Shown here one piece after another: positions 386 through 13,000 of a DNA stretch of 13,087 nt. A model generated the notes under the pieces. It saw nothing but the letters and a program-made list of their open reading frames with translations. It was not told where the DNA came from and ran no database searches. The stretch is from Gemmatimonadota bacterium (GTDB lineage Bacteria > Gemmatimonadota > Gemmatimonadetes > Gemmatimonadales > GWC2-71-9): positions 1-13,087 of the forward strand of contig JAZDCZ010000275.1 of assembly GCA_036679605.1 (NCBI GenBank), in the 5' to 3' direction. Position numbers and translations under genes: made by a program. Each line of letters opens with the position of its first letter. The stretch's first letter is position 1.

Positions 386-938
386 TCCGTACCAAGCGCG
401 CCGGCAGTAACCCTACCGGTGTGCGCTGTCTCAAAGTCATTGACGGTCGGCGGGGAGAGGACGGTAGCCGGGCGGAGCACGGTTGGGATCCGACGGTGCA
501 CCGATATCGATCTGCCCGGCTCCGACCGAGAGAAGGGAAGCTCGACGTAGCGCTGGTCTATGTTGACCGAGTGCGTTACCGCCGACGGCCTTATGAATAC
601 TGCCGAAGCGATTGCGGCCGCCTCCGCGGTTGTGACCGAGAACGTAGCGCTTGCGATTCATGGCTCGTGCGAGCGTGTAAGCGAAGCAAAGCTGTGCGGC
701 GCGCACACGACTGCGCCGAATAGGCGTTGGTTAGATCAGTGCTCGGGGAAAAACGGGCGGAGACGTGCTGTCTGGTGGCGCTCTGGTTCTACCCAGGTAG
801 ATCGAGAGCCGTGCGTCCCAGAATCCGGGTCTGGCACAATCTTGTCCCGCCACGCTGCGGCCGGCGCCAGTATGCCGTGATAGCCCTGACTCGTGTCAGC
901 GAGCACGGATAGGCCGAGTAGCCGGCACACGGATCGCG

Positions 939-1703
939 CTAGCCGAGATCCGATACGGCCCTGCTTTCCGCCTCCAGTTCATCGACGATACGTCGAAGCT
1001 CGTCCACGTCGGAACCCGTCGGAGTGTATCCCGAGCCCAGCCACTCTTCCAGGCGCTCCTCCGTATGCCCTGCTACTTCCCCAAGACGGGGAAACCCGCA
1101 AAGTGCGCCGGCGCCATGAATCTGATGGAGGTTGTTGCGCAGGGCTTCCAAAGCGCTGCGTTGCAGCTCTTCGTGCGTGGCTTTGTCCAGAACAGCACGC
1201 ATTTCTTCGAGCTTGGGCGTCAAGCGCGAGACGAACTTCTGCGCCACTTCCGGGGGCAGCTTTCGCTTATGTGCGACCTCAGGTCGGGAGACGCGTGCGT
1301 CGCTATCCGTCGGACCTCCCACGCCACTCAGATCTCTGACGATGGCGACTAGTTCGTCAGGTTCCGGCGGCTTTTGAAGACGCGCACTCCAGGGGCCGGG
1401 CGCTTCCTGGGAGAGCAGCTTGAGTGATCCCGTGAGCAGGACCATACGCGCGTGTCTTGTGCGCTCATCGGCGACAATAGTCTCCGCGATCTGACGTCCG
1501 TCTGTAGGCGGTATCATGTAATCGAGAACAATAACTTGCGGACGTATCTCTCGGGCCAAGGACACTGCTTGATCACCGTCGGCGGCCACGGTCACCTCGA
1601 ATCCGGCTTCCTCCAGATATCCCTTCAGTATCGACCTGGTACATACTTCGTCGTCTGCTACGAGGACTCGCACCTTGGATGACGCTTCTACCCTATGTGA
1701 CAT
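939..1703 (-). CDS. Response regulator with N-terminal receiver (REC) and C-terminal Hpt domain
   Basis: REC: VLVADD, VIVLD61, LLT91G, K111P. A linker is followed by an Hpt-like helical region 'LRNNLH193QIHGAGALCGFPRLGEVAGHTEERL'. AGGA RBS about 7 nt upstream of the ATG. Last gene of the che operon. Confidence 0.85.
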   Translation of the reverse strand: MSHRVEASSKVRVLVADDEVCTRSILKGYLEEAGFEVTVAADGDQAVSLAREIRPQVIVLDYMIPPTDGRQIAETIVADERTRHARMVLLTGSLKLLSQEAPGPWSARLQKPPEPDELVAIVRDLSGVGGPTDSDARVSRPEVAHKRKLPPEVAQKFVSRLTPKLEEMRAVLDKATHEELQRSALEALRNNLHQIHGAGALCGFPRLGEVAGHTEERLEEWLGSGYTPTGSDVDELRRIVDELEAESRAVSDLG

Positions 1704-1727
1704 AGTTCGTTCCTACCTTCCCCCGCT

Positions 1728-2798
1728 CTAGTTGGCTTCGGATAGTTCGGCGAGGGTCGCTGCAATATCGTCAATCGACAAAACTGCGTCGCTCAGCCCC
1801 GCTTCGATTACGACACGCGGCATCCCGAAGACCACCGACGTCTCTTCGTCCTGAGCAATGATGGTTCCATTCCCCGCGTGTATCGCACGTGCACCGTCCA
1901 AGCCGTCGCTGCCCATGCCTGTGAGCACCACGGCCAATACGGCGGGGCCGTACACCTCGGCCGCAGACCGAAAGAGCACATCCGCGGAAGGGCGAAACCC
2001 GCCGACGGGCGGCGAATCGCAAACACTCATCCGGCCCCTCTCGCGCAAGCGAATGTGTGCTTGCGCGGGCGCCATATAGACGACGCCGGCCTCTAGCGCA
2101 TCGCCTTCACTGGCCGACTTGACAGGGAGAAGGCTCACGTCGTTGAGCCAAGACGCGAAGCCCTCGGTAAAATCGGCGGTCATGTGTTGTACGGCGACGA
2201 TTGGAAACGGAAACTCTCTCGGCAAGGCAGAGAGAAGCCGTCGGAGCATTTTCGGTCCACCTAGTGAGGCGGCGATAGCGACCACCTGGTAGGGATTGTG
2301 TCCTCGCAGGGCAGCTACACGCACGGGTCGACTCGACCCAGCCACTGGAGTCGCCGCATCAGCCGCTACTGGCATGTCGTCCAATTGCACTTCTACGACG
2401 GCCTTGAGGGTGGTCAACAGATGCCGTCGTGCGTCCTCGAATTCCGTCGTACCGAGATGATCGGGCTTCTTGACCGCGGCGAGCGCACCGGCTGCCATCA
2501 CGCGCATCGAAAGCTCTGCATCGCCGTCATTGATGAGCGCCGAAACGGCCACGATACGAGTCGGGCATTCTCGCATGATGCGCTTGGTTGCTTCGATGCT
2601 ATCGATATCCGGCATCGCCACGTCCATTGAAATGACCTGGGGTCGAAGCTCGCTTGCTTTGCGTATCGCCTCCGATCCGTCTTGCGCGACACCGATTACT
2701 TCGAATGCCGGGTCGGCATTCACAACGTGAGATAGTAGCCCCCGATAGGTCGAGGAATCATCTACTATCAATACGCGGATTGGCCTCTTTGAACTCAT
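1728..2798 (-). CDS. cheB: Chemotaxis methylesterase response regulator CheB (WspF-like)
   Basis: N-terminal REC (VLIVDDS, ISMDVAMP, KKP). Methylesterase triad motifs AASLGGP (Ser), VQHM (His), LTGMGSDG (Asp), plus RPSADVLF and AQDEETSVVFGMP. ATGA overlap with cheA at 2795-2798. Confidence 0.96.
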   Translation of the reverse strand: MSSKRPIRVLIVDDSSTYRGLLSHVVNADPAFEVIGVAQDGSEAIRKASELRPQVISMDVAMPDIDSIEATKRIMRECPTRIVAVSALINDGDAELSMRVMAAGALAAVKKPDHLGTTEFEDARRHLLTTLKAVVEVQLDDMPVAADAATPVAGSSRPVRVAALRGHNPYQVVAIAASLGGPKMLRRLLSALPREFPFPIVAVQHMTADFTEGFASWLNDVSLLPVKSASEGDALEAGVVYMAPAQAHIRLRERGRMSVCDSPPVGGFRPSADVLFRSAAEVYGPAVLAVVLTGMGSDGLDGARAIHAGNGTIIAQDEETSVVFGMPRVVIEAGLSDAVLSIDDIAATLAELSEAN

Positions 2799-5032
2799 AC
2801 CAGTTGACTTATGGTTTCAAGAAATGCTCCGAGTTCGAATGTGCTCTTGACAATATAGGCGTTTGCGCCGGCTTCGAGGCCGCGAGCTTTGTCTGCATCG
2901 CTGTCGCAGGAGGTGACCAGGACTACCGGCAGATGGCAAAGCGCCTGCGACCTGCGGATCTCTTCTGTCAAAGCGATGCCGTCCATCGAAGGCATCGCTA
3001 CATCGGAGACCACCATGTCGATAGGCTGCTTGGCAAGGATCTCCCAAGCACTGGCGCCGTCAACGGCCGTGACTACGTCGTAGCCGGCGGAAGTCAAGGC
3101 ATTCCTTTCGAGAGCCCGGGCGGTAGCGTCATCGTCGACTACCAAAACTCGTTTCGGTCCGACATCCTCCTGCGTCGCTGCCCGCGGTGCGAATACACTC
3201 GCGTTCGCCGCCGGGCGTTGAAGTGCAGTGCGTACCAACTCGGGCACATTGAGGATGAGAGCTATCTTTCCACCACTGAGAACCGTGGCTCCGGAAATAT
3301 TGGGCACCTGTTGTAGACGTACCCCGAGGTTCTTTACCACCACACGCTCAGTTGCCAAGCATTCGTCGACGGCGAAAGCCACACGTTTGTCACCGCTGGC
3401 CAGTACGGCAACCGTGACCTCGCGATGGCAGTCGCTGTCTTCGGACGAACCGACACCGAGCTCGTCGGCCAGCGAAACCAGACGGACGAGTTGTCCGGCA
3501 ACCAAGATCGCCTCGTGGCCATCGACTAGACGGATGTCTTCGGGTCGGGTGCGTAGAATGTGAGATACGCTCGCCGACAATCCAGCGTAGACACCTCCTC
3601 CTGCTCTCAAAAGCAGAACATGCGCCGTGGTGAGCGTCAGAGGAACAGCCAAGACGAATGTCGTGCCCCGACCCGGCTCCGAGCTGAAATGCAGGGTCCC
3701 GTTCAACGATTCGATGATCGCTTTTACGACGTCGAGACCGACACCGCGTCCAGAGATTTCGGTCACAGTCGATGCAGTCGAGAAACCGGGTTCAAATATC
3801 AAATCCGACGCATCTCCGGCGCTCGCCGCGGCAACGATGCCGTGGCGGAGAGCATGTTCACGAACTGCCTCGGTGTTGATGCCCCGACCGTCGTCACTGA
3901 CGGTTACCTCTACGTAGGGTCCGCTCAACGAAGCACGCACGGTGATGCAACCACGCCTGTCCTTGCCGCCGGCCTCCCTATCGACAGGCCCTTCGAGCCC
4001 GTGGTCGACCGCGTTACGCACAAGGTGGATGAGCGGACTCTTCAGAGCTTCGAGCGTCGAGCGATCCAATTCTACGTCGCCACCTTCGATGACGAGGTCA
4101 GCCTCTTTCCCCGTAACCCTGGCAACGTCCCGAACGGCTCGCTCCAGTCCGTAGCAAGCCTCGGCGAACGGAAACAGTCGAATATCGCGTGCGTCCTCTT
4201 CGAGCGTGGCTACAGCCCTATTCAACGAGCGCCGGTCTGCGGCCAAATCGACCCGAAGCCGTTCCAGTTCCGTCGCCAAGCGTGCGAGCATTGCCCGAGC
4301 CTTGTGCGGGACCGAGTCGACGGCGGGTTGAGCTGAAGCAACACGCGAGGAACGCCGCCCACCCACATCAAGAACAGCGCGACAGTCGGAAAGCACACGT
4401 TTGACGAGCACCATTTGCTCGCTACGAAGGCCGTTCCTTCCTTGTATGAGGAGCATCTCGTTGGTGCCGACGAGTAGTCTGTCGAGCTTCTCCGGCCGAA
4501 CTCGCAATGTGGCTGTGGAATCCGCCGTCGATACGCTCGGTGGAGCTTTGGGTGCCGGCGACGGCTCCTCCTTTCCATGCGGTTCACTGCCTTCTTCGTT
4601 GTGACACATCTCCGAGTGGTCAACGTCCATGAGCGCGAGAGCAAAGCGAGGAATGAGGTCTTCCATGGAGGCCTGCTTCACTTCGCGGCACTCGAATAGC
4701 ATGAGTCGAATTTCGTCAATCGCGTCGGCTGTGTTGAAAAAAAGCTGGAGAAGCTCGGGGGTCAACTTCAAGGTGTTGTCTCGCAACGCGCCGAGGACAT
4801 CTTCTAGGCCGTGGCACCCTTCTTCGAGTAGGTGGGCGTTCATCATCGCGGATGCACCCTTGATCGTATGCGCGGTCCGGAACAGGCGTCGAAACACCTC
4901 GGCGCGTTCGGCATCGGCACAGGGACGGTCCAAAGCCAGGAGGTCCTCATTGAGAAGACGTGAGTGCTCCTCGAGTTCATCCAGAAACGTAGGCAGCAAC
5001 TCTTCGACTAGGTCAGATAGGTCTTGTGCCAT
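2795..5032 (-). CDS. cheA: Hybrid CheA histidine kinase with C-terminal REC (WspE/FrzE-like), no recognisable P2 domain
   Basis: P1 'FRTAH55TIKGAS'; dimerisation 'LRVRPEKLDRL'; HATPase boxes HLVRNAVDHG, DDGRG, IFEPGFST, GRGVGLDVV; CheW-like P5 'VPLTLT...ISGATVLSGGKIALIL'; C-terminal REC 'VLVVDDD...VVSDVAMP...LVTS...YIVK'. Confidence 0.97.
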   Translation of the reverse strand: MAQDLSDLVEELLPTFLDELEEHSRLLNEDLLALDRPCADAERAEVFRRLFRTAHTIKGASAMMNAHLLEEGCHGLEDVLGALRDNTLKLTPELLQLFFNTADAIDEIRLMLFECREVKQASMEDLIPRFALALMDVDHSEMCHNEEGSEPHGKEEPSPAPKAPPSVSTADSTATLRVRPEKLDRLLVGTNEMLLIQGRNGLRSEQMVLVKRVLSDCRAVLDVGGRRSSRVASAQPAVDSVPHKARAMLARLATELERLRVDLAADRRSLNRAVATLEEDARDIRLFPFAEACYGLERAVRDVARVTGKEADLVIEGGDVELDRSTLEALKSPLIHLVRNAVDHGLEGPVDREAGGKDRRGCITVRASLSGPYVEVTVSDDGRGINTEAVREHALRHGIVAAASAGDASDLIFEPGFSTASTVTEISGRGVGLDVVKAIIESLNGTLHFSSEPGRGTTFVLAVPLTLTTAHVLLLRAGGGVYAGLSASVSHILRTRPEDIRLVDGHEAILVAGQLVRLVSLADELGVGSSEDSDCHREVTVAVLASGDKRVAFAVDECLATERVVVKNLGVRLQQVPNISGATVLSGGKIALILNVPELVRTALQRPAANASVFAPRAATQEDVGPKRVLVVDDDATARALERNALTSAGYDVVTAVDGASAWEILAKQPIDMVVSDVAMPSMDGIALTEEIRRSQALCHLPVVLVTSCDSDADKARGLEAGANAYIVKSTFELGAFLETISQLV

Positions 5033-5047
5033 CTAAGTACCCTGTGA

Positions 5048-5665
5048 CTACTCCGACGCGGCCACGCCGATGTGGAGTGCTTCATCGTGGAGCAGCCTGT
5101 CGCCGTCCAAAATGATGAGACCGTCGGACGCCACTCCGAGCGTGTAGCCGCCGGTTGTTTCGATGCGATCGGCATGGCCACTGATGCTGTCTCGGTCGAG
5201 GACTACCGCCCTGTAGATTTCGCCGACCGACACAGCGAACTCCGGGGCACTGTCGCCGAAAACGAGCAGGTAGCCGTCATCGCCGGCTGATGAAGACGAC
5301 GGCAGGCCCAGTAGAATCGCTAAGTCGAACACGGCAAGTGCGCTGCCGCGGTACAGTGTCAGGCCTCGGACGAACTCGGGTGTACCCGGCACCGTAGTAA
5401 TATCGGTTCTGCGGATGACCTCGGTTAAATGTCGTTCGTCTATCGCATAGTTTTGCCCGCCAAGACGGAAGCCGACCGCCGTAAGCGAGGAATCGGAGTC
5501 CGCGTCACACCCAGTCGTTTTAGCCAGACGTTGTGCGCGCCGGTCCATGAGGCCGTCGGTCGACGCCTGCATGCGCCTTTCGGCAGCCGTCAGGGGTTCA
5601 GGCAAGGCGTCGTTCACATCGTCCCGACCTTGCTCTAACTCTCCGTGTCGCGAGCATTCGCTCAT
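5048..5665 (-). CDS. cheW: CheW adaptor with N-terminal extension (WspD-like), 205 aa
   Basis: CheW motifs 'FRLGGQNYAI...ITTVPGTPEFVRGLTLYRGSALAVFDLAILLG'. Start moved from 5785 to ATG 5665, which has an AGGAG RBS and an ATGA overlap with the cheR stop (5662-5665). Confidence 0.9.
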   Translation of the reverse strand: MSECSRHGELEQGRDDVNDALPEPLTAAERRMQASTDGLMDRRAQRLAKTTGCDADSDSSLTAVGFRLGGQNYAIDERHLTEVIRRTDITTVPGTPEFVRGLTLYRGSALAVFDLAILLGLPSSSSAGDDGYLLVFGDSAPEFAVSVGEIYRAVVLDRDSISGHADRIETTGGYTLGVASDGLIILDGDRLLHDEALHIGVAASE

Positions 5666-7071
5666 GCTGTTGCTCCTGATTCGCCGTCGAGTAGAGCGAG
5701 ACTCGTCTGGACAGCCTCGGCGAATTGGCCAACGGTCTCTTCCGGCGCAAGGGCCAACGGAGCCGACGATTCGAGCCCCGCACACAGCGATTGCGCCGTG
5801 AGGAAACTACGTCGCGCACTCTCGATGTCTTCTCGTCCGCGGGAGATAGTCCCGAGCAGAAAGTGCACAACTGCCAGCGACCGGTCGAGATAGAGTAGAC
5901 GGTTCAGGACTGCTTCGGCCTTGCGATCATCGCCCATATCGAGGAGAAAGACTGCGCGCAGAAAATGAAGTTCGATAGACAGAGGGTGACGATCCGTTGC
6001 TTCGCGGCAGTCGCGCTCCCCCGCGCTCGCTCCATCCAGGCAGGCAACCGCACGCGCGTGCAACGCACATGCAGCCGGGTCTTTTTTCAAAGGCGCCGAC
6101 AGCATCACCGCTCTTTCATAATCGCCCTGCGCACAACACTTCTCGGCCTCCTCGAGACAATCCACCGAGATCTGTTGCTCGGCCACAATGATCGGAGCGA
6201 CAGCGGGAGCTACAGGGGCATCTTCGCGAGGATCTGTAAGGAAGACCGCCGCCGTAGTGGTTTCTTCGCAGCGGCGGTAAACCAGGCCCGCAGGAGTTGA
6301 TAGCGCAACCAGACCCGCAGCATCGTCGAGCCGTGGATCGGTAGGGGACGTAATCAGCCAGCCGTCATCGGTGAGCAACGAACGGAACATTTCTGCGATT
6401 CGTCCTATCGTCGCGCCGTCGAAATACACCAAGACGTTGCGGCACAGAATAAGATCGAAACGCCCGCCGTCCCGCGCGAAGCTGGGGGGTAGGCACTCGG
6501 CGAGATTCAGCTGCTCGAACTCGACGGCACGACGTATCGAGGAGTCGAGTACCAGCCGCTCACCCGTACGCTCGAACCAGCGGCAGCGGGGGGCCTCGTC
6601 AATCCCACGTAGTGACCAAGCCCCATAGGTAGCGGTGCGCGCCTGGTCCAGAGCAAGCCTGGACAGATCGCTAGCGTAGATATTGACCCTATCGGCGACT
6701 CCCTGTTCGGCCGCCAAAATTGCAATTGAATAGGGTTCCTCTCCTGAGGCGCAGCCAGCGCTCCATACACGGACCGGCACACGACCGGGTCGGCTGCTCA
6801 TAAGCGCCTGCAGTATTGTCTTTCGTATCATCTCGAACTGAGCCGGATGACGAAAGAAGTAGGTTTCACCGATCCGGAGTTTCTCGATCAGGCGTTGGAA
6901 CTCGATTCGATCGGAACGGAGTAATGAGATGTAGTCCCTTGTACCGGACGCACCGGCTCCTCGTGCTGCGCTCTCCACAAGCTTGAGGACTTCACTCCGT
7001 CTGCTTCCCGTGAATGTGATTCCGGTTGAACGTGTGACAATATCGAGGATGGTTTCGGCCTCCGATTTCAT
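5662..7071 (-). CDS. cheR: CheR methyltransferase with C-terminal TPR region (WspC/FrzF-like), 469 aa
   Basis: Motifs IGETYFFRH, VRVWSAGCASGEEPYSIA, ASDLS, FDLILCRNVLVYFD. TPR-like C-terminus 'LHFLRAVFLLDMGDDRKAEAVLNRLLYLDRSLAVVHFLLG'. Start moved from 7203 to ATG 7071 (ATGA overlap with the cheW stop at 7068-7071). Confidence 0.93.
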   Translation of the reverse strand: MKSEAETILDIVTRSTGITFTGSRRSEVLKLVESAARGAGASGTRDYISLLRSDRIEFQRLIEKLRIGETYFFRHPAQFEMIRKTILQALMSSRPGRVPVRVWSAGCASGEEPYSIAILAAEQGVADRVNIYASDLSRLALDQARTATYGAWSLRGIDEAPRCRWFERTGERLVLDSSIRRAVEFEQLNLAECLPPSFARDGGRFDLILCRNVLVYFDGATIGRIAEMFRSLLTDDGWLITSPTDPRLDDAAGLVALSTPAGLVYRRCEETTTAAVFLTDPREDAPVAPAVAPIIVAEQQISVDCLEEAEKCCAQGDYERAVMLSAPLKKDPAACALHARAVACLDGASAGERDCREATDRHPLSIELHFLRAVFLLDMGDDRKAEAVLNRLLYLDRSLAVVHFLLGTISRGREDIESARRSFLTAQSLCAGLESSAPLALAPEETVGQFAEAVQTSLALLDGESGATA

Positions 7072-7523
7072 CGCTCGCACGCCGGATGCCGGCGATCGTC
7101 GGATTCGCCGACTTCGATATCGGACACCAACGCCCGGAGGTCCTGGATAAGGACGATGCCATCGTCGAATTCGGCAATACCCGAGACAAGTCGGGTATAA
7201 CAAGCCAGGTTGTTGGTAGATTGAGCGTCGGAATCATCAATGTCGGCTATGCCCAGGGCGCGATCAACGCGGAACGCCAGCAATCGTGCCCCTGTCCGCG
7301 CTACGACCAACTGGTCTGTGTACGAGATCGGCTTGTGCGGCAGTGACAGGCGTTGGCGAATGTCGAAAACAGGGATTACGCACCCGCGCATATTGAGGAT
7401 ACCTTCGATGGCCGCGGATGCGCCTGGAAGGGGCGCAAGCGTCACGGCTGCAACAACCTCTTGGACGTCCGCAAGGTCCAGACCATAGCGCTGCCCGGAA
7501 ATCTCGAACAGAAACAAATGCAT
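7068..7523 (-). CDS. cheW: CheW adaptor (WspB-like)
   Basis: 'LFEISGQRYGLDLADVQEVV...LAPLPGASAAIEGILNMRGCVIPVFDIRQRL...LAFRVD' is a canonical CheW pattern. It lies directly after the MCP. Confidence 0.95.
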   Translation of the reverse strand: MHLFLFEISGQRYGLDLADVQEVVAAVTLAPLPGASAAIEGILNMRGCVIPVFDIRQRLSLPHKPISYTDQLVVARTGARLLAFRVDRALGIADIDDSDAQSTNNLACYTRLVSGIAEFDDGIVLIQDLRALVSDIEVGESDDRRHPACER

Positions 7524-7544
7524 CTGAGATCCGTTTGACCCTCA

Positions 7545-9071
7545 CTAAGGGGTTGTCGGCGAAGGATCGATCTTCGATCCGCCCAACCTGAACTTTCCGA
7601 TCAACGTCGTCAGCTTGCTCGTTGTGGTAGTAAGCGATTCGGCCGTCTGCTGCGCATCGCGCGACCCTGCCAAGGCACGTGAGCATTCCTGCTCGATGTC
7701 GTTCATCGCCTGTCTGATCTGGTCGATACCGACCTCTTGCTGCTCCACCCCGGATGCAACCTGCTGCAGAGACTGATGGGTGCCCCCTACCACGTGGGCC
7801 AGTTCATCGATGATTTCGCCGGCTTGGCCCACCCGCGAGACACAGGTCTCCACCCCAATTGCTCCGGCCTCTGTCGCCATGACCGCGACGCTCATCGAGC
7901 CTTCGACATCGTCGAGGATGACTCTTACCTTGTTGGCAGCTTGTCGCGACTGCTCGGCCAGCTGACGTACTTGCTCGGCGACGACGGCAAAACCGCGTCC
8001 GGCATCGCCAGCTCTTGTTGCCTCTATCGCAGCGTTCAAGGCCAAAATGTTCGATTCGTTGGCAATCTCGCCCACCGTCACGATTATCTCTCGTATGGCG
8101 TCGCTTTGTCCGGACAAGTGCGTGATGGTCTGCGCTATCGCGCCTACCTTGTCACGGGTCTCCTCCATCGAGGCAATCGCCGCCATCACCGCGTCGCGCC
8201 CTCCCGTTGCCTTTTCCGCCGCCTTCTTCGACAAGGTGGCTATCTCGGAGGTCTGCTTGGAGGATTCCACCGCCGCCGCACGCAACTCGGCTACGGCGGC
8301 ATTGGTCTCTACAACAGCGGAAGAATAGCGGCCAGCACTCGCGACTTGCTCACCGGCCGTAGCCACGAGTTCGGTCGCCGCACTCGCGAGATATCCGCTG
8401 GTATCGGACACCTCTTCTATTACGCTACGGACGGTGGTCTTGAGTAGCGCGTAGCAATCCGACAGGTCGTGTTCGGCGGAATCGACATCGACCTGTTGAA
8501 GGTCCAGGCCGACCGACTGCAAATAGTCGTAGAAGAATCCGTCGACGACCGCCTGTATATCGTAATTGAAAACCAAGAAGATGGCACGCTCGGCTCTGTT
8601 CCGCATACGAAAACGTAGCGGGAAGCTCCTGCGTAGGCGCTTCCGAACTATGTCTTGGTACAATGCGTAACTACCTATATACCACTTCAGCGGAAGCGCT
8701 ATGACGCTGTGAAGTTGCCCGACCTTGAGCCGTTTGTCGAAGTATCCTGCTCCATAACTGCCACCGGACTCGGCCTCTTTGAATATCTCGAGAAAGTACC
8801 CGGCTTGGGCACGCTCCACGTGTGTACGCAGTTCATCAAGCGAAATGCCTCCTTTACGCGCATGCGCTTCGAAGAACGCACGCGTCGGCCCGAAGTTCAT
8901 CTGGTAGTGATAGAACTCGCGCGCGATCGAGGCCGAATTGCGTTCGGCCCACCGGGTCAATTTGCCCAGAACCTTTGCGTCTGACGACGTAAAGTTCATG
9001 AACTGCTTTCTCAGATTCAGATTGGTATCGTTGATACCGTAGACCGTCGTAGATCTGCCGTCCGACTTCAT
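7545..9071 (-). CDS. Soluble globin-coupled sensor methyl-accepting chemotaxis protein (protoglobin-type sensor plus about 40-heptad signalling domain)
   Basis: N-terminal globin: 'AREFY' (putative B10 Tyr) and '[23 protein letters not shown]' (proximal His and the HemAT-like xKWY motif). C-terminal MCP hairpin '[35 protein letters not shown]'. No transmembrane segment is evident. ATG 9071 is preferred over GTG 9083 because a GAGGTG RBS lies just upstream. Confidence 0.92.
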
Positions 9072-9318
9072 TCCACACCTCACCGTCGACTAACGCGTTG
9101 TTACTTTGTAAGAACTCGTGGTCCCGGTTGTTGCCGACCGGGCTCGACTCTCACCAGCTTCAGATTATCATGGGGCACAGCCACCTTCCGCAAATTCTGT
9201 TACTGGGATTGCGACAGCACTATATACAGCGTCTGCGTGGCGACTGTTACGCTCGCCGGGATATAGCGCAGTTGTCAGGGAAACCGAGATACAAGACAGT
9301 CCGTTGGCACCGGAGCAG

Positions 9319-9347
9319 TTGAAATGTACACCGCATAGGTGTACATT
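9319..9347 (+). promoter_or_regulatory. Sigma70-type promoter of the TA locus with an overlapping palindromic operator
   Basis: -35 TTGAAA (9319-9324), 17-bp spacer, -10 TACATT (9342-9347). A perfect 10-bp inverted repeat AATGTACACC-gcata-GGTGTACATT (9323-9347) covers the spacer and the -10. The toxin ATG begins 8 nt after the -10. Confidence 0.8.
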
Positions 9348-9355
9348 GGTCTTGC

Positions 9356-9638
9356 ATGATCCAAGGAAGTCGTCCTCAGTCGTCGAGCCCAGAAGAACCT
9401 GAGGTTGGCTCCCTCGCACGTTGCAACGAAGCTGCTCTATTGGGTCGGACTGGTCGAGACGAGTGGGTTGGAGACGACAAGAAAACAACCAGGCTTTCAC
9501 GACGAACCACTGAAGGGCCAGAGAAAAGGTCAACGGTCTATTCGGCTCAGTCGTACCTACCGAGCCATCTATGTCGTCAGGCGCGACGGGGCATTCGAAT
9601 TCGTAAGCGTCGAGGAGGTAAACAAGCATGAGTACTAG
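9356..9638 (+). pseudogene. higB: HigB/RelE-family mRNA interferase toxin, frameshifted at codon 2-3 (or a sequencing error)
   Basis: ATG ATC C AAG GAA GTC: removing one base gives about 93 aa 'MIKEVVLSRRAQKNLRLAPSHVATKLLYW...PGFHDEPLKGQRKGQRSIRLSRTYRAIYVV...VSVEEVNKHEY', which is RelE/HigB-like. As written, the toxin frame has TGA at 9357-9359 and no ATG/GTG/TTG start before TTG 9405. Confidence 0.75.
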
Positions 9639-10038
9639 ATCCAACACGAGGATCAGGGACTCCAAACGGTTCCTAGAAAAGCTATCCGGAGGACCGCTCA
9701 CGTTCGGCGGACTGCTCGCCGCGATCCGCGAGGCGGAGGGGGCGACCCAGGTGGATTTCGCCGCAACGCTCGGAGTCTCTCGATCGCACATGTGCGACAT
9801 TGAGAAGGGCCGTAAGGTCGTTGGTGCCGCACGCGCTGCACGCTTCGCAAAGATTCTCGGCTATTCGCCCGAGAGCTTCGTGGCGCTCGCTCTGCAGGGA
9901 CAGGTCATTGAGGCGGGCCTCAAGCTCAACGTGAGCGTGGAGGCCGTTCGAGTACTCGGTGGCGGTTTTGTCGGGCTTACGAAGCGATTCCACGGCGTTG
10001 TTCTGCCTAATCATTGCCTTGGTGCACAACTCCGGTAG
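9628..10038 (+). CDS. higA: XRE-family HTH antitoxin (HigA-like), probably with a 29-aa read-through extension
   Basis: HTH_XRE 'LLAAIREAEGATQVDFAATLGVSRSHMCDIEKGRK'. GAGGAGG RBS at 9612-9618. It overlaps the toxin 3' end by 11 bp in toxin-first order. Confidence 0.85.
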   Translation: MSTRSNTRIRDSKRFLEKLSGGPLTFGGLLAAIREAEGATQVDFAATLGVSRSHMCDIEKGRKVVGAARAARFAKILGYSPESFVALALQGQVIEAGLKLNVSVEAVRVLGGGFVGLTKRFHGVVLPNHCLGAQLR

Positions 10039-10415
10039 AGACCGAGGGTTCGCTTGGGCTCTACTTTCCTCATCCGATCATCTCGCCATCGGGCATCCCG
10101 AGCGCCGCCATGGTGTTCAGAATTTTACACCCGATCTTTGCCTCGACTCTCTGCGCCGCCAGCCCTCTCGCCTTCATCGCTGAGCCCACCCACGATGCCC
10201 TTGTAGCGATGGAACGTCGTCTCGACTTTGCTCCGTTTGCTATAGCCCGATTCGATGTGCCACGCGCGCTTCCCGACGCGAGCTCGCGCTCGAATGTTGC
10301 GGTTGCGCTGTCGCGTAGTCGCTGACTCCGACGCAAGCTGCGCGCCCTTTCGCGGCGGTATCAGTACCCTCGGCGAGCAATGAGTACGGTGATTCTCGAT
10401 CGCTTCATAGACGCC
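10016..10415 (-). mobile_element. IS5-family (IS903-like) element remnant, 3' portion only
   Basis: It contains the transposase C-terminus on the minus strand. An IS903-like terminus (GCCTTGGTGCACAA, from 10016) follows the transposase stop. The remnant is cut at 10415 by the IS21 element. The terminal position is approximate. Confidence 0.7.
10070..10415 (-). pseudogene. IS5-family DDE transposase C-terminal fragment, frameshifted
   Basis: Manual translation from 10415: GVYEAIENHRTHCSPRVLIPPRKGAQ...QRNRNIRARARVGKRAWHIESGYSKRSKVETTFHRYKGIVG, then a frameshift at a CCAC duplication (10186-10193), then SAMKARGLAAQRVEAKIGCKILNTMAALGMPDGEMIG*. IPPRK, W-x-x-x-SGY-x-x-RS-x-VET and N-x-M-x-x-LGMP are IS903-like signatures. 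Confidence 0.85.
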
Positions 10416-10470
10416 TGTTTACAGCGCTAGAAAAGTGACCCATTCACCGCTGAATAATTGACCCACCCCC
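10416..10470 (+). repeat. IS21 left inverted repeat (IRL)
   Basis: TGTTTACAGCGCTAGAAAAGTGACCCATTCACCGCTGAATAATTGACCCACCCCC matches the reverse complement of 12875-12929 at 45/55 positions. It has two internal AA(G/T)TGACCC motifs. Confidence 0.93.
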
Positions 10471-10527
10471 CGCCCTGTGACCCGTAGTCTAGAATGGTAA
10501 AAAACCAGGCGACGGGAGGTAACGGAG

Positions 10528-12006
10528 GTGTTGAGAGTGAGTCAGGTCCAGGTAATCAGACACAAGTTCTTTGTCGAGGGCGTAGGTATCCGACGGATCG
10601 CCCAGGATATGGGTATGAGTCGCAACACGGTGCGCAAATATCTCGAGGAGGCGGAGCCCGTGCGCAAGGCCCGCAAGCAAAAAAGCCGGCCGGTTTTTGA
10701 GAAGGTTGCACCACGGCTTGCCGCTCTGGTTGAAGAGTGGACCTCGCGTACGACGCGCAAGCAGCGGATCACTGCGGCGCGGCTTCACGACCAGCTCATC
10801 GAAGAGCACTACGAGGTAGGCATCACCTTGGTGCAGGACTGGATGCGTGAGCGGCGCCGACGCAAGGCCGAGGTCTACATACCGTTGGTGCACCACCGTG
10901 GTGACGATGCTCAGGTCGACTTCTTCGAAGTCAGTGTTGATATCGGGGGCCAGCGGCGCAAGCTCTGGATGTTCCTTATGCGGCTGATGTACTCGGGGCG
11001 CGATTTCGCCTGGCTCTATGAGTGGGCCGACCAGGTGTCATTCCTGGACGGCCACGTTCGAGCCTTCGAGCACTTTGGTGCCGTCTCGCACCGGCTGATC
11101 TACGACAATTTGAAGGCGGCCGTAGCGCGCCTGGTGCTCCCTGAGCGTGAGCTGACGCTGCGCTTTCAGGCTCTGGCGAGCCACTACCTCTTCGAGCCTT
11201 GCTTTGCGCGGCCAGGTACTGGTCACGACAAGGGCGGTGTGGAGGCACGTGGCAAGGGGATACGCTTGCAGCACCTGACACCGATCCCGCAGGGAGACTC
11301 ACTGCGCGAGACTTGTGAGCATCTCATGAGTCGTATTGAGCGTGTGGCGGCCCAGCGTCGCGATCGCGACGGCAAGACCATACAGGAGCGCTTCGAGGAG
11401 GAGCGACCCAGCATGCTGCCACTCCTAAGTGGCAGCTTCGATCCGGCAAAAATCGTCTCATGCTCGGTCAGCCAAAGCGCACTGGTGCGAGCCGGTGGAG
11501 CCAGATACTCGGTGCCATCGCATTGGAAGAGTCTCGATGCGCTGGCCTATGTTGGTGCCGACCAGGTACGGATCGTGTGCCGCGGCCACAGCGTGACCCA
11601 TGAGCGGCAAGCCTCTGGCCGCAAGCTGGTACGCTACCGGCATTATCTCCCCGAGCTGGCGCGCAAGCCGCAGGCGCTGCGCCAAGTCGCTGCTGAGCTG
11701 CTTGCCGAGCTTGGAGAGCCGTTTGGGGAGTTCTGGAGGCTGCTCGTTGACACCCACGGGCCACGCGAGGCGGCCCGTATCTTCGCACGGGTACTCGAGG
11801 CTATCTGCGATCACGGCGAGCACCGTGTGGGCGCAGCCGTGGCGGCAGCTTTGGCTTCAGGCCGCACCGACCTGCTCGAGCTTGCCAAGCAGCTTGGCCA
11901 GCCTCAAGTGCCCATGGTCACCGTAGCGCAGGCACTTGCTGACTATCAGATCGAGTCGGCCTCGGCGGCCGACTACGACGTACTGCTTGGCGGAGATCAG
12001 CCGTGA
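10528..12006 (+). CDS. istA: IS21-family DDE transposase IstA
   Basis: N-terminal HTH '[20 protein letters not shown]'; DDE motifs AQVDF, LIYDN, DKGGVE; C-terminal 'RYSVP'. Confidence 0.96.
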
Positions 12007-12755
12007 ATGCTGCTGCTCGCCAAGCCGTAATCACCGAGTACTGCCGCGAGCTCAAGGCCCCGGCGATCCTGCGTGAGCACGCAGAGGTTGCCCGTCAGGC
12101 GCGCGATGGTGGCTGGGCCTACGAGGACTTTCTCCTGCAGCTGCTTGAGGCCGAGATCCACTCACGCCGCAATCACACGGTGGAGCACCGAGTGCATGAA
12201 GCGCGTTTCCCCGAAATCAAAACCCTGGATCAGCTCGACTGGCAAGCCATCAAAGGCATTAGCAAGCCAAAGCTCGCGGAGCTTTCCAGCTGTGAATACA
12301 TCAAGGCTGGCGAAGACGTCGTGTTGGCCGGCCCGATCGGCACGGGCAAGACCCACATCGCCATCGCTCTGGGCGTTGAGGCCGCCCGGCGTCGCCACCG
12401 TGTGGTGTTCATCCGTGCCGCCGACCTTGTCCGTGAACTGCTCGAGGCACGAGACGAGCGTACTCTTACGCGGCTGCACAAGCGCTACGGCCGCGTAGCT
12501 CTGTTGATCTGTGACGAGCTGGGATTCGTCCCGTTCGACCGCGCCGGCGGCGAGTTGCTCTTTAACTTGCTTAGCGATCGCTATGAGCGCCGCTCCACGA
12601 TCGTCTCTACCAACCTCGCCTTCGGGGAATGGGTGCAAGTCTTTGGTGACGAGAAGCTCACCACCGCACTGCTCGACCGTCTCGGACATCACGCCCACGT
12701 GCTTACAACCCGAGGGCAATCGTACAGGACAATGAAACTCAAGGAGCGAAAATGA
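12003..12755 (+). CDS. istB: IS21-family AAA+ helper ATPase IstB
   Basis: ARFP..KTL, Walker A GPIGTGKT, Walker [27 protein letters not shown]. Confidence 0.97.
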
Positions 12756-12874
12756 GGCTGCCCCATACCCCGTCTCGACCCGAGATCGTGGCTCAGAGGC
12801 CGTCTGTGGAGTCCAAATTTCCGACTGTAGCGGACGAAACCGCCATCGGCCGGGAAAGACCAAAAAACCCGGCA

Positions 12875-12929
12875 GGGGGTGGGTCAATTTTACAGCGGTG
12901 AAAGGGTCAATTTCTGAGCGTTGACAACA
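12875..12929 (-). repeat. IS21 right inverted repeat (IRR)
   Basis: The reverse complement is TGTTGTCAACGCTCAGAAATTGACCCTTTCACCGCTGTAAAATTGACCCACCCCC. The plus strand carries an outward-facing TTGACA at 12921-12926. Confidence 0.93.
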
Positions 12930-13000
12930 GCCGGAGCACCGGTCAACTGAAGAAATGCGATCGGGCCTGCCTCCGTTTTCTTTGCCGGCGTCATCATCAC
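12930..13000 (-). pseudogene. Possible 5' start of a gene truncated by the IS21 element
   Basis: GGGGGAG RBS (13003-13009, minus strand) is followed by GTG ATG ATG and then TPAKKTEAGPIAFLQLTGAP, which runs into IRR and stops there shortly after. Confidence 0.35.

Follow-up and report, generated by a model that had tools for sequence, protein, structure and literature searches.

Chemotaxis-like pathways that do not serve swimming are common in genomes, but signal and output are both known for only a handful of them. HemAT and other characterised globin-coupled receptors serve aerotaxis in flagellar systems with CheY. The Wsp system (wspABCDEFR) of Pseudomonas and other bacteria controls biofilms. 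It is defined by the synteny of wspA-F with at least 30% identity and by a WspR or WspH output (PMC8552884). That paper reports Wsp only from Beta- and Gammaproteobacteria, and WspH, a hybrid kinase/regulator, is described there as a variant output known in Burkholderia. Most genes for CheR fused to TPR are found in clusters that include multidomain regulators, and they have been tied to alternative cellular function (ACF) pathways (PMC3447774). In the Che3 systems of R. centenum and M. xanthus (CrdS/CrdA; PMC3147164), as with WspH of Burkholderia, a CheA-REC feeds a further two-component layer, in place of a CheY that binds the motor, in a non-motility cascade, and the phosphate flow of R. 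centenum Che3 (CheA3, CheS3, CheY3) between two hybrid proteins is non-canonical (PMC3868531). Here, we analysed a 13,087-base stretch of DNA (GenBank contig JAZDCZ010000275.1, assembly GCA_036679605.1; hereafter the window), which is one whole contig of a Gemmatimonadota metagenome bin and carries a seven-gene chemosensory cluster between positions 939 and 9071.

The association of CheR-TPR clusters and multidomain regulators is already established as a hallmark of ACF systems (PMC3447774), and what is new in the window is a soluble globin input together with a REC-Hpt end in a Wsp layout. The interpretation that we favour, and regard as fairly probable, is that the cluster is an intact operon in which a haem-globin gas sensor would drive a Wsp-type array with methylation adaptation, and in which a REC-Hpt protein would relay the signal to an unlinked receiver.

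Gene layout and its closest relatives

The cluster and its genes, with the domains assigned by Pfam, are as follows:

939-9071, minus strand: the seven-gene cluster, all genes co-oriented
7545-9071, minus strand: Protoglobin-MCP (methyl-accepting chemotaxis protein) receptor (Protoglobin, PF11563, 77.9 bits against a cut-off of 25; MCPsignal, 111 bits)
7068-7523, minus strand: first CheW, in the WspB position (CheW, 94.9 bits)
5662-7071, minus strand: CheR-TPR, in the WspC position (CheR, 137.6 bits; TPR at residues 355-397)
5048-5665, minus strand: second CheW, in the WspD position (205 amino acids; CheW at residues 64-195)
2795-5032, minus strand: CheA-REC (Hpt-HATPase-CheW-REC)
1728-2798, minus strand: CheB methylesterase (also NCBIfam CheB subfamily, 349.5 bits against a cut-off of 293)
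939-1703, minus strand: REC-Hpt protein of 254 residues (REC, PF00072, at 1338-1667; Hpt, PF01627, at 969-1247)

The order Protoglobin-MCP, CheW, CheR-TPR, CheW, CheA-REC, CheB, REC-Hpt was read from the Pfam domains of the open reading frames (ORFs) of the window. The genes are spaced by 21, -4, -4, 15, -4 and 24 bases, and the ATGA stop/start overlaps on the minus strand fall at 7068-7071, 5662-5665 and 2795-2798, exactly where the initial annotation had placed them along with the seven genes and their domains. The second CheW has a 60-residue N-terminal extension. The same annotation had noted no stand-alone cheY, cheZ, cheC, cheX or cheD, and none was detected. The CheY, CheC and CheD sequences of another che system in the bin, used as seeds against the six-frame ORFs of the window, matched nothing but the receivers within CheA, CheB and REC-Hpt. 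For CheZ, CheX and CheV the search was limited to Pfam scans of 17 ORFs of the window, which gave no match to any of them. The window contained no GGDEF domain, no kinase domain besides that of CheA and no pilus gene. The promoter and terminator scan of positions 500-9500 gave counts not above those of shuffled sequence, and the region downstream of REC-Hpt (1-938) showed no Pfam or NCBIfam match and no recognisable gene.

The layout was compared with a locus on a Ralstonia syzygii megaplasmid (L109), consisting of a 4HB-HAMP MCP, CheW, CheR-TPR, CheW (234 amino acids), CheA-REC, CheB and REC-GGDEF. This locus, taken to be a Wsp cluster by inference from its layout and PMC8552884, served as a stand-in for the Wsp reference in place of the Pf0-1 or HI2424 queries of that paper. 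Positions two to six are alike in the two clusters, whereas the first and last genes differ. The second CheW of L109 is likewise N-terminally extended, and its CheA is likewise composed of Hpt-HATPase-CheW-REC without P2. The identities were 33.6% for CheA (residues 10-745), 35.6% for CheB, 38.7% for the catalytic part of CheR, 33.1% for the first CheW and 25.6% for the signalling domain of the receptor, and the second CheW gave no match of at least 55 bits. The Wsp order recognised at the outset, with its fusions of CheR to TPR and of CheA to REC, has a gene-for-gene counterpart in L109, and both terminal modules depart from Wsp as proposed, with a globin receptor and REC-Hpt in the window versus 4HB-HAMP and REC-GGDEF in Ralstonia. 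Set against the published definition, the window holds receptor, CheW, CheR, CheW, CheA and CheB in one operon; its last gene, however, is REC-Hpt and neither WspR (REC-GGDEF) nor WspH, and its receptor has a soluble N-terminal globin in place of a membrane WspA with an outer sensory domain, Wsp having a membrane 4HB/HAMP receptor. By the definition of PMC8552884, the cluster falls outside the Wsp family.

A single syntenic relative was found, in a Binatia metagenome-assembled genome (MAG; G421), where MCP-CheW-CheR-TPR and CheW-CheA-REC-CheB-REC-Hpt lie on two contig ends (L025, L013). The window and G421 proteins were 47% identical for CheA, 53% for CheB, 49% for REC-Hpt, 41% for CheR and 39% for CheW; the second CheW of G421 is cut by both contig ends and is 37-49% identical to that of the window over the visible parts. 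The G421 receptor lacks a globin and combines two membrane segments with an outer domain of the PilJ type and HAMP, whereas that of the window is soluble and carries the globin.

The signalling core retained its catalytic residues. CheA has the Hpt His55, the N, G1 and G2 boxes and the REC Asp677, with the NCBIfam CheA models spanning residues 246-603 and no Pfam match to a P2 domain, and CheB has the REC Asp59 and Ser178. Among the 583 plasmid records returned by a tblastn search with CheA, most of the matches over the full length were to S. meliloti pSymA che2 (35%) and to a second Ralstonia CheA (33.5%). The nearest named CheA was the CheA-REC of S. meliloti che2 (35% over 99% of the length), a system of class ACF with a 40H receptor (PMC8429497). 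A maximum-likelihood tree of the CheA core (16 rows) placed the window and G421 as sisters (89/86). It also contained a split (98/96) with the window, G421, S. meliloti che2 and an Azospirillum CheA-REC on one side, and two flagellar references, the CheC/CheD-linked CheAs and the CheAs of the L036 type described below on the other. The flagellar references were S. meliloti che1 (class F7, PMC8429497) and the R. solanacearum cheA beside motAB. Two traits associated with ACF pathways in PMC3447774, a multidomain response regulator (here REC-Hpt) and CheR fused to TPR, are both found in the cluster. By nearest relative and tree, the cluster probably belongs to class ACF with a Wsp-like layout.

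The pSymA che2 cluster of S. meliloti resembles that of the window in having CheA-REC, CheR-TPR and CheB, and its receptor, of class 40H in PMC8429497, gives a gap-free alignment with the window receptor. It differs in its order (cheR-cheW-mcp-cheA-cheB), its one CheW, and its lack of a globin and of a regulator gene after cheB, and it adjoins Tad pilus genes. The flagellar che1 cluster of the same species opens with a gene annotated as 'globin-coupled sensor protein' (L110:497-2098, in a record named pSymB), followed by STAS, CheY, CheA, CheW, CheR, CheB, CheY and CheD, and so sets a precedent, in a motility system, for a che operon that begins with a globin receptor. In the non-motility cascades of R. 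centenum, M. xanthus and Burkholderia, CheA-REC is followed by a hybrid kinase or by a regulator of the NtrC type, whereas in the window it is followed by a bare REC-Hpt without a kinase domain. The entry 'HPT' occurs in three rows of Table S2 of PMC3447774, two of them for regulators of the hybrid-kinase type and one for HPT-HATPase-REC, which resembles CheA-REC. A full-text literature search gave no report of a Wsp-like or CheR-TPR cluster that includes a globin-coupled receptor. Titles and abstract openings, in a survey that lay outside the regulator tables of Wuichet and Zhulin 2010, showed no stand-alone REC-Hpt as a chemosensory output. The initial impression that no characterised example was known therefore agrees with the literature search, in which the globin, Wsp-like and REC-Hpt combination was not described.

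The receptor and its globin input

The receptor comprises 508 amino acids when read from the ATG at 9071, and the longest frame opens at the GTG at 9083. Its two parts are:

8514-9014, minus strand: sensor globin domain (receptor residues 20-186), with distal Tyr54 and proximal His121
7581-8432, minus strand: signalling hairpin (receptor residues 214-497), of different ancestry from the globin

The protoglobin assignment made for the N-terminal domain was substantiated by a score well above the Pfam cut-off, by the retained haem ligand His121 and by a predicted sensor-globin fold. His121 and Tyr54, which we take to be helix positions F8 and B10, respectively, were invariant in all 20 aligned globin-coupled receptors. 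The AlphaFold model of the receptor had a mean pLDDT of 84.3, with about 95 in the globin part, and its globin fold matched those of GsGCS (2w31) and AfGcHK (5ohf) with a TM score of 0.83 and that of HemAT (1or6) with 0.76. A Thermosynechococcus globin was matched as well, and the TM scores on the target ranged over 0.76-0.87 in all and 0.83-0.87 for 2w31, 5ohf and 8h17. The long hairpin of the model resembled solved cytoplasmic domains of receptors. No membrane segment was found in the receptor, the maximum of the hydrophobic 19-mers being at most 1.31, consistent with the cytoplasmic location suggested earlier. These features indicate that the receptor likely senses O2, NO or CO through haem.

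The two halves pointed to different relatives. When residues 205-508 were used as the query, 119 non-self matches were obtained, none of which carried Protoglobin, and the best were HAMP receptors. The median score on the signalling half was 88 bits for globin-coupled receptors versus 180 bits for the HAMP set, and the globin part was at most 63% identical to those of other globin-coupled receptors. The closest signalling domain was that of the PilJ-HAMP receptor of G421 (54% identity over residues 214-497, gap-free), the match beginning immediately after the HAMP domain of the latter. The junction between globin and signalling part sits exactly on the domain border, and the model shows a continuous helix across it. 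Judged from these comparisons, the receptor is a chimera whose globin and signalling hairpin come from different receptor lineages, and the globin and linker appear to occupy the place of the two membrane helices, the PilJ-type domain and the HAMP of its relative. The receptor shares with HemAT-type proteins a place at the head of a che operon and a soluble build in which an N-terminal sensor globin, with both the proximal His and the distal Tyr, precedes an MCP hairpin, but its signalling half is of another lineage and the partner systems of HemAT-type receptors are flagellar.

The EQ and E-T pairs of the hairpin fall on known methylation positions of the T. maritima receptor, and the hairpin aligned without gaps to the Pseudomonas receptor in PDB 6s18 over 283 residues. 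It also aligned without gaps to S. meliloti McpS over 271 residues (40H according to PMC8429497).

To place the globin receptor among its relatives, 79 metagenome loci with the closest globin domains, from a globin-alignment search, were surveyed, with globin domains 47-63% identical to that of the window and with neighbours judged by single-sequence seeds. The neighbourhoods were distributed as follows:

4 of 79 loci: CheA-REC beside the globin receptor
5 of 79 loci: CheA without a receiver, together with CheC and CheD
8 of 79 loci: some che genes, no CheA in view
16 of 79 loci: no che gene within at least 5 kb on either side
46 of 79 loci: no che gene, short flanks

By these seeds no locus had REC-Hpt or CheR-TPR beside the globin receptor, although divergent TPR or Hpt domains could escape them and the short flanks limit the view at 46 loci. 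The four CheA-REC loci (L036:1010-15935, L043, L048 and L051; the L036 type) resemble the window in having Protoglobin-MCP directly beside CheA-REC, with CheW, CheB and CheR and no CheY-type output. They differ in a partner-switching output (REC-PP2C, RsbW-like kinase and STAS), a plain CheR, a CheA with extra CheW domains and another gene order, and their CheAs form a separate clade. The L036 type also has a PAS hybrid kinase with Hpt upstream, a REC protein, a Protoglobin-MCP-CZB receptor and a second receptor, and as a whole it looks like an oxygen-sensing Che-to-sigma-factor pathway. These four loci imply that globin receptors feed non-CheY pathways elsewhere, in another layout. Globin receptors within non-CheY chemosensory clusters are accordingly not confined to the window. 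In the search for the full combination, G421 shared CheR-TPR, CheA-REC and REC-Hpt, and no second locus joins these with Protoglobin-MCP among the 79 globin loci and 11 REC-Hpt loci. The idea that the globin receptor family as a whole is tied to Wsp-like clusters was rejected, the nearest members being orphans or parts of other cluster types.

The REC-Hpt protein and the proposed phosphorelay

All phosphorylation-related sites of REC-Hpt are kept (Asp17, Asp18, Asp61, Thr91, Lys111 and His193); the five REC residues are invariant in the REC-Hpt alignment (A2), and His193 lies within an H-x-x-H-G motif. The protein is rare. A word-based search gave a single close homologue, P0122 of the Binatia MAG (49%). 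An exhaustive search of 1.84 billion representatives gave 21 matches at E <= 1e-30, few of which cover both domains in one stretch. Ten relatives were scanned for domains: three stand alone (P0122, P0131 and P0135), five have the form REC-Hpt-REC(n)-GGDEF, P0174 consists of three receivers and Hpt, and P0250 has a kinase ATPase domain with receivers and Hpt. Three sets of genomes contained no orthologue at E <= 1e-20, namely 60 from relatives of the bin, 400 from its phylum and a further 300 from the phylum of G421; two weak full-length matches of 26-30% identity were seen (G020:C64 and G037:C3). When genome contigs were searched with the REC-Hpt alignment, 11 loci were obtained, with che genes only at the Binatia locus. 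The distant genes (24-32%; loci L014-L021) lie in clusters that hold kinases and three to six genes for receivers but no che genes. REC-GGDEF is present at two of the ten distant loci (L018 and L020), and eight of the ten come from Gammaproteobacteria or Steroidobacteraceae MAGs.

The fusion of REC-Hpt relatives to GGDEF hints at a cyclic di-GMP (c-di-GMP) end point. G421 itself encodes, apart from its che cluster, an 852-amino-acid REC-Hpt-REC-REC-GGDEF protein (L028:4115-6673, contig C55) at an exopolysaccharide-type locus with a YaiO barrel with TPR, a HEAT-repeat protein and a GT2 glycosyltransferase. With its weak GGDEF match (48 bits), the protein may be a degenerate cyclase. The bin of the window (G000) has GGDEF matches adjoining REC matches (C357 and C217).

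From these data, the following pathway is proposed. Ligand binding at the haem would alter the receptor hairpin, which would set the autophosphorylation of CheA at His55 through both CheW proteins. By analogy with WspE and WspR, the phosphoryl group would pass from CheA to Asp61 of REC-Hpt, then to the Hpt His193 and on to an unlinked receiver, possibly a REC-GGDEF cyclase. CheA would also phosphorylate CheB and its own REC domain, which may act as a sink or gate. CheR-TPR and CheB would reset the receptor by methylation, and as a consequence the pathway would report changes in gas level and not absolute levels. A non-motility output is most likely. Since REC-Hpt is fused to REC-REC-GGDEF in relatives, control of c-di-GMP and exopolysaccharide is the best guess for this output, and the chance of a GGDEF end point, if the proposed relay is correct, is put at about one in three. 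More tentatively, and with considerable doubt, the globin may have been grafted onto a Wsp-type receptor and REC-Hpt may be the free-standing front half of REC-Hpt-REC-REC-GGDEF cyclases, giving a cytoplasmic adapting O2 sensor that would act on c-di-GMP and matrix through a His-Asp-His-Asp relay.

Two other outputs were weighed against this relay. REC-Hpt might serve internally as a phosphate sink or shuttle, exchanging phosphoryl groups with CheA-REC and CheB and thereby tuning adaptation and the output of the kinase, with CheA-REC or an unlinked single-domain regulator as the output of the pathway, which we consider unlikely. Receivers fused to CheA are sinks or gates in several systems (PMC10782961), the flow in R. 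centenum Che3 is non-canonical (PMC3868531), no receiver gene follows REC-Hpt in the window or G421, and the relative P0135 has no Hpt histidine. A plain sink, however, would have no need of an Hpt domain, while REC-Hpt keeps His193 and its whole REC active site, and the fused relatives place REC-Hpt ahead of further RECs and GGDEF, the usual relay order. It is also improbable that this is a taxis system with an unusual last step, in which REC-Hpt would hand phosphate to a motility regulator and so direct aerotaxis on surfaces through type IV pili or gliding. HemAT-like receptors do serve aerotaxis, the flagellar che1 of S. meliloti opens with a globin gene, Tad pilus genes adjoin che2, the source of the nearest named relative of CheA, and the other che system of the bin adjoins MglA/MglB-like and DUF4388-TPR genes. 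The window nevertheless lacks CheY, CheC, CheD and pilus genes, the relatives of REC-Hpt have GGDEF outputs, FlhA was not found in the bin (96.5% complete), and CheR-TPR with a multidomain regulator is a published mark of non-motility ACF clusters (PMC3447774).

A third explanation regards the cluster as a recently shuffled mobile passenger that is not, or is no longer, functional in its present host, with the globin fusion an evolutionary accident without a dedicated target. The flanks, which hold an IS21 element, an antitoxin-type HTH (helix-turn-helix) gene and a repeat common to other small contigs, and which are barely covered or absent in other samples where the cluster is present, would fit such an origin, as would the lack of REC-Hpt orthologues at the above threshold in 60 + 400 + 300 genomes. 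The explanation is nonetheless very improbable, given that the seven frames are open and tightly coupled with every catalytic residue checked kept, that REC-Hpt, CheB and CheA stay collinear in a strain of about 96% identity, and that the chimera junction falls exactly at a domain border with a continuous helix in the model.

Several observations count against the favoured relay and its setting. No terminal receiver was found next to the operon in the window, which stops 938 bases past REC-Hpt, and the G421 gene after REC-Hpt encodes a PFOR-like oxidoreductase. The stand-alone relative P0135 has glutamine both at the phospho-accepting His and at the following basic residue in alignment A2, so part of the REC-Hpt family may act without phosphotransfer, and the fused REC-Hpt-REC-REC-GGDEF protein had no orthologue in the bin. 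As to class, the long-branched Wsp-type CheA of Ralstonia falls across the 98/96 split from the window CheA, and CheA-REC without P2 is common in several classes, at about 35% of CheAs (PMC10782961). The cluster is a near-singleton flanked by mobile DNA. The bin measures 6.7 Mb with 6.3% contamination, while its relatives have 2-5.5 Mb, mostly 3-4 Mb, and the window contig has its repeats in common only with other small contigs. The host is consequently uncertain, and with it the argument from a missing flagellum; the absence of FlhA and the second che system are weak context.

The signal side is unusually readable, because a sensor globin with an intact haem ligand is open to simple spectroscopy. 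The same hairpin and kinase cluster serve a membrane receptor in G421 and a soluble haem receptor in the window, which amounts to a clean natural domain swap. REC-Hpt and its fused REC-Hpt-REC-REC-GGDEF relatives would provide a concrete route, open to testing, by which a CheA-type kinase could act on c-di-GMP. If this route is real, an adapting oxygen input would reach biofilm control, and a coupling of biofilm decisions to oxygen change instead of oxygen level has not been described before. If it is not, the operon would still be a compact model of the exchange of input and output modules in alternative chemosensory pathways.

Assembly support, host and flanking DNA

The cluster is not an assembly artefact. 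An independently built contig of 9153 bases (run X1) spans positions 386-9538 with 0 differences, and a 1926-base contig from a second study (run X2) spans 6625-8550 with 8 differences and crosses the junction between globin and signalling part. In the strain of about 96% identity, REC-Hpt, CheB and most of CheA lie in line on a 3785-base contig, the sole gap being 1 base in the spacer between CheB and REC-Hpt. The runs X2, X3 and X5 hold the che cluster, but the IS21 element had no cover in X2 and X5 and traces in X3 (mean depth at most 1.43), and positions 1-874 were thinly covered in X2 and X3. As the flanks are scarcely covered while the che genes are present, the latter form a conserved unit.

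The tetranucleotide and GC composition of the window contig (C196 of the bin) is within the range of the bin, which is not decisive for membership. The nearest relatives of the cluster genes are in the Binatia MAG and not in the bin's own phylum. The other che system of the bin (C91, 86000-116000; L001/L002) is arranged as CheW-CheY-CheA(P2)-CheC and CheR-CheD-CheB-CheW-CheW, interspersed with genes for MglA-like, Roadblock/MglB-like, two DUF4388-TPR, DnaA-like AAA and large TPR proteins.

Upstream of the receptor gene lies one further element:

10412-12933, plus strand: apparently complete IS21-family element, with istA at 10528-12006 and istB at 12003-12755 (Pfam rve/Mu-transposase and IstB)

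Its ends are 63-base imperfect inverted repeats (81%) at 10412-10474 and 12871-12933. Between the element and the cluster (9356-10038, plus strand), an ORF of 91 amino acids without a family match overlaps one of 136 amino acids encoding an Xre-type HTH protein with weak HigA/Y4mF antitoxin matches, and the two look like a toxin-antitoxin pair. Within this region, positions 9506-9944 (439 bases) are 97% identical to another contig of the same bin (C337). At the opposite end of the window, a 47-base repeat at 644-690 recurs on the small bin contigs C375 (91%) and C134 (87%).

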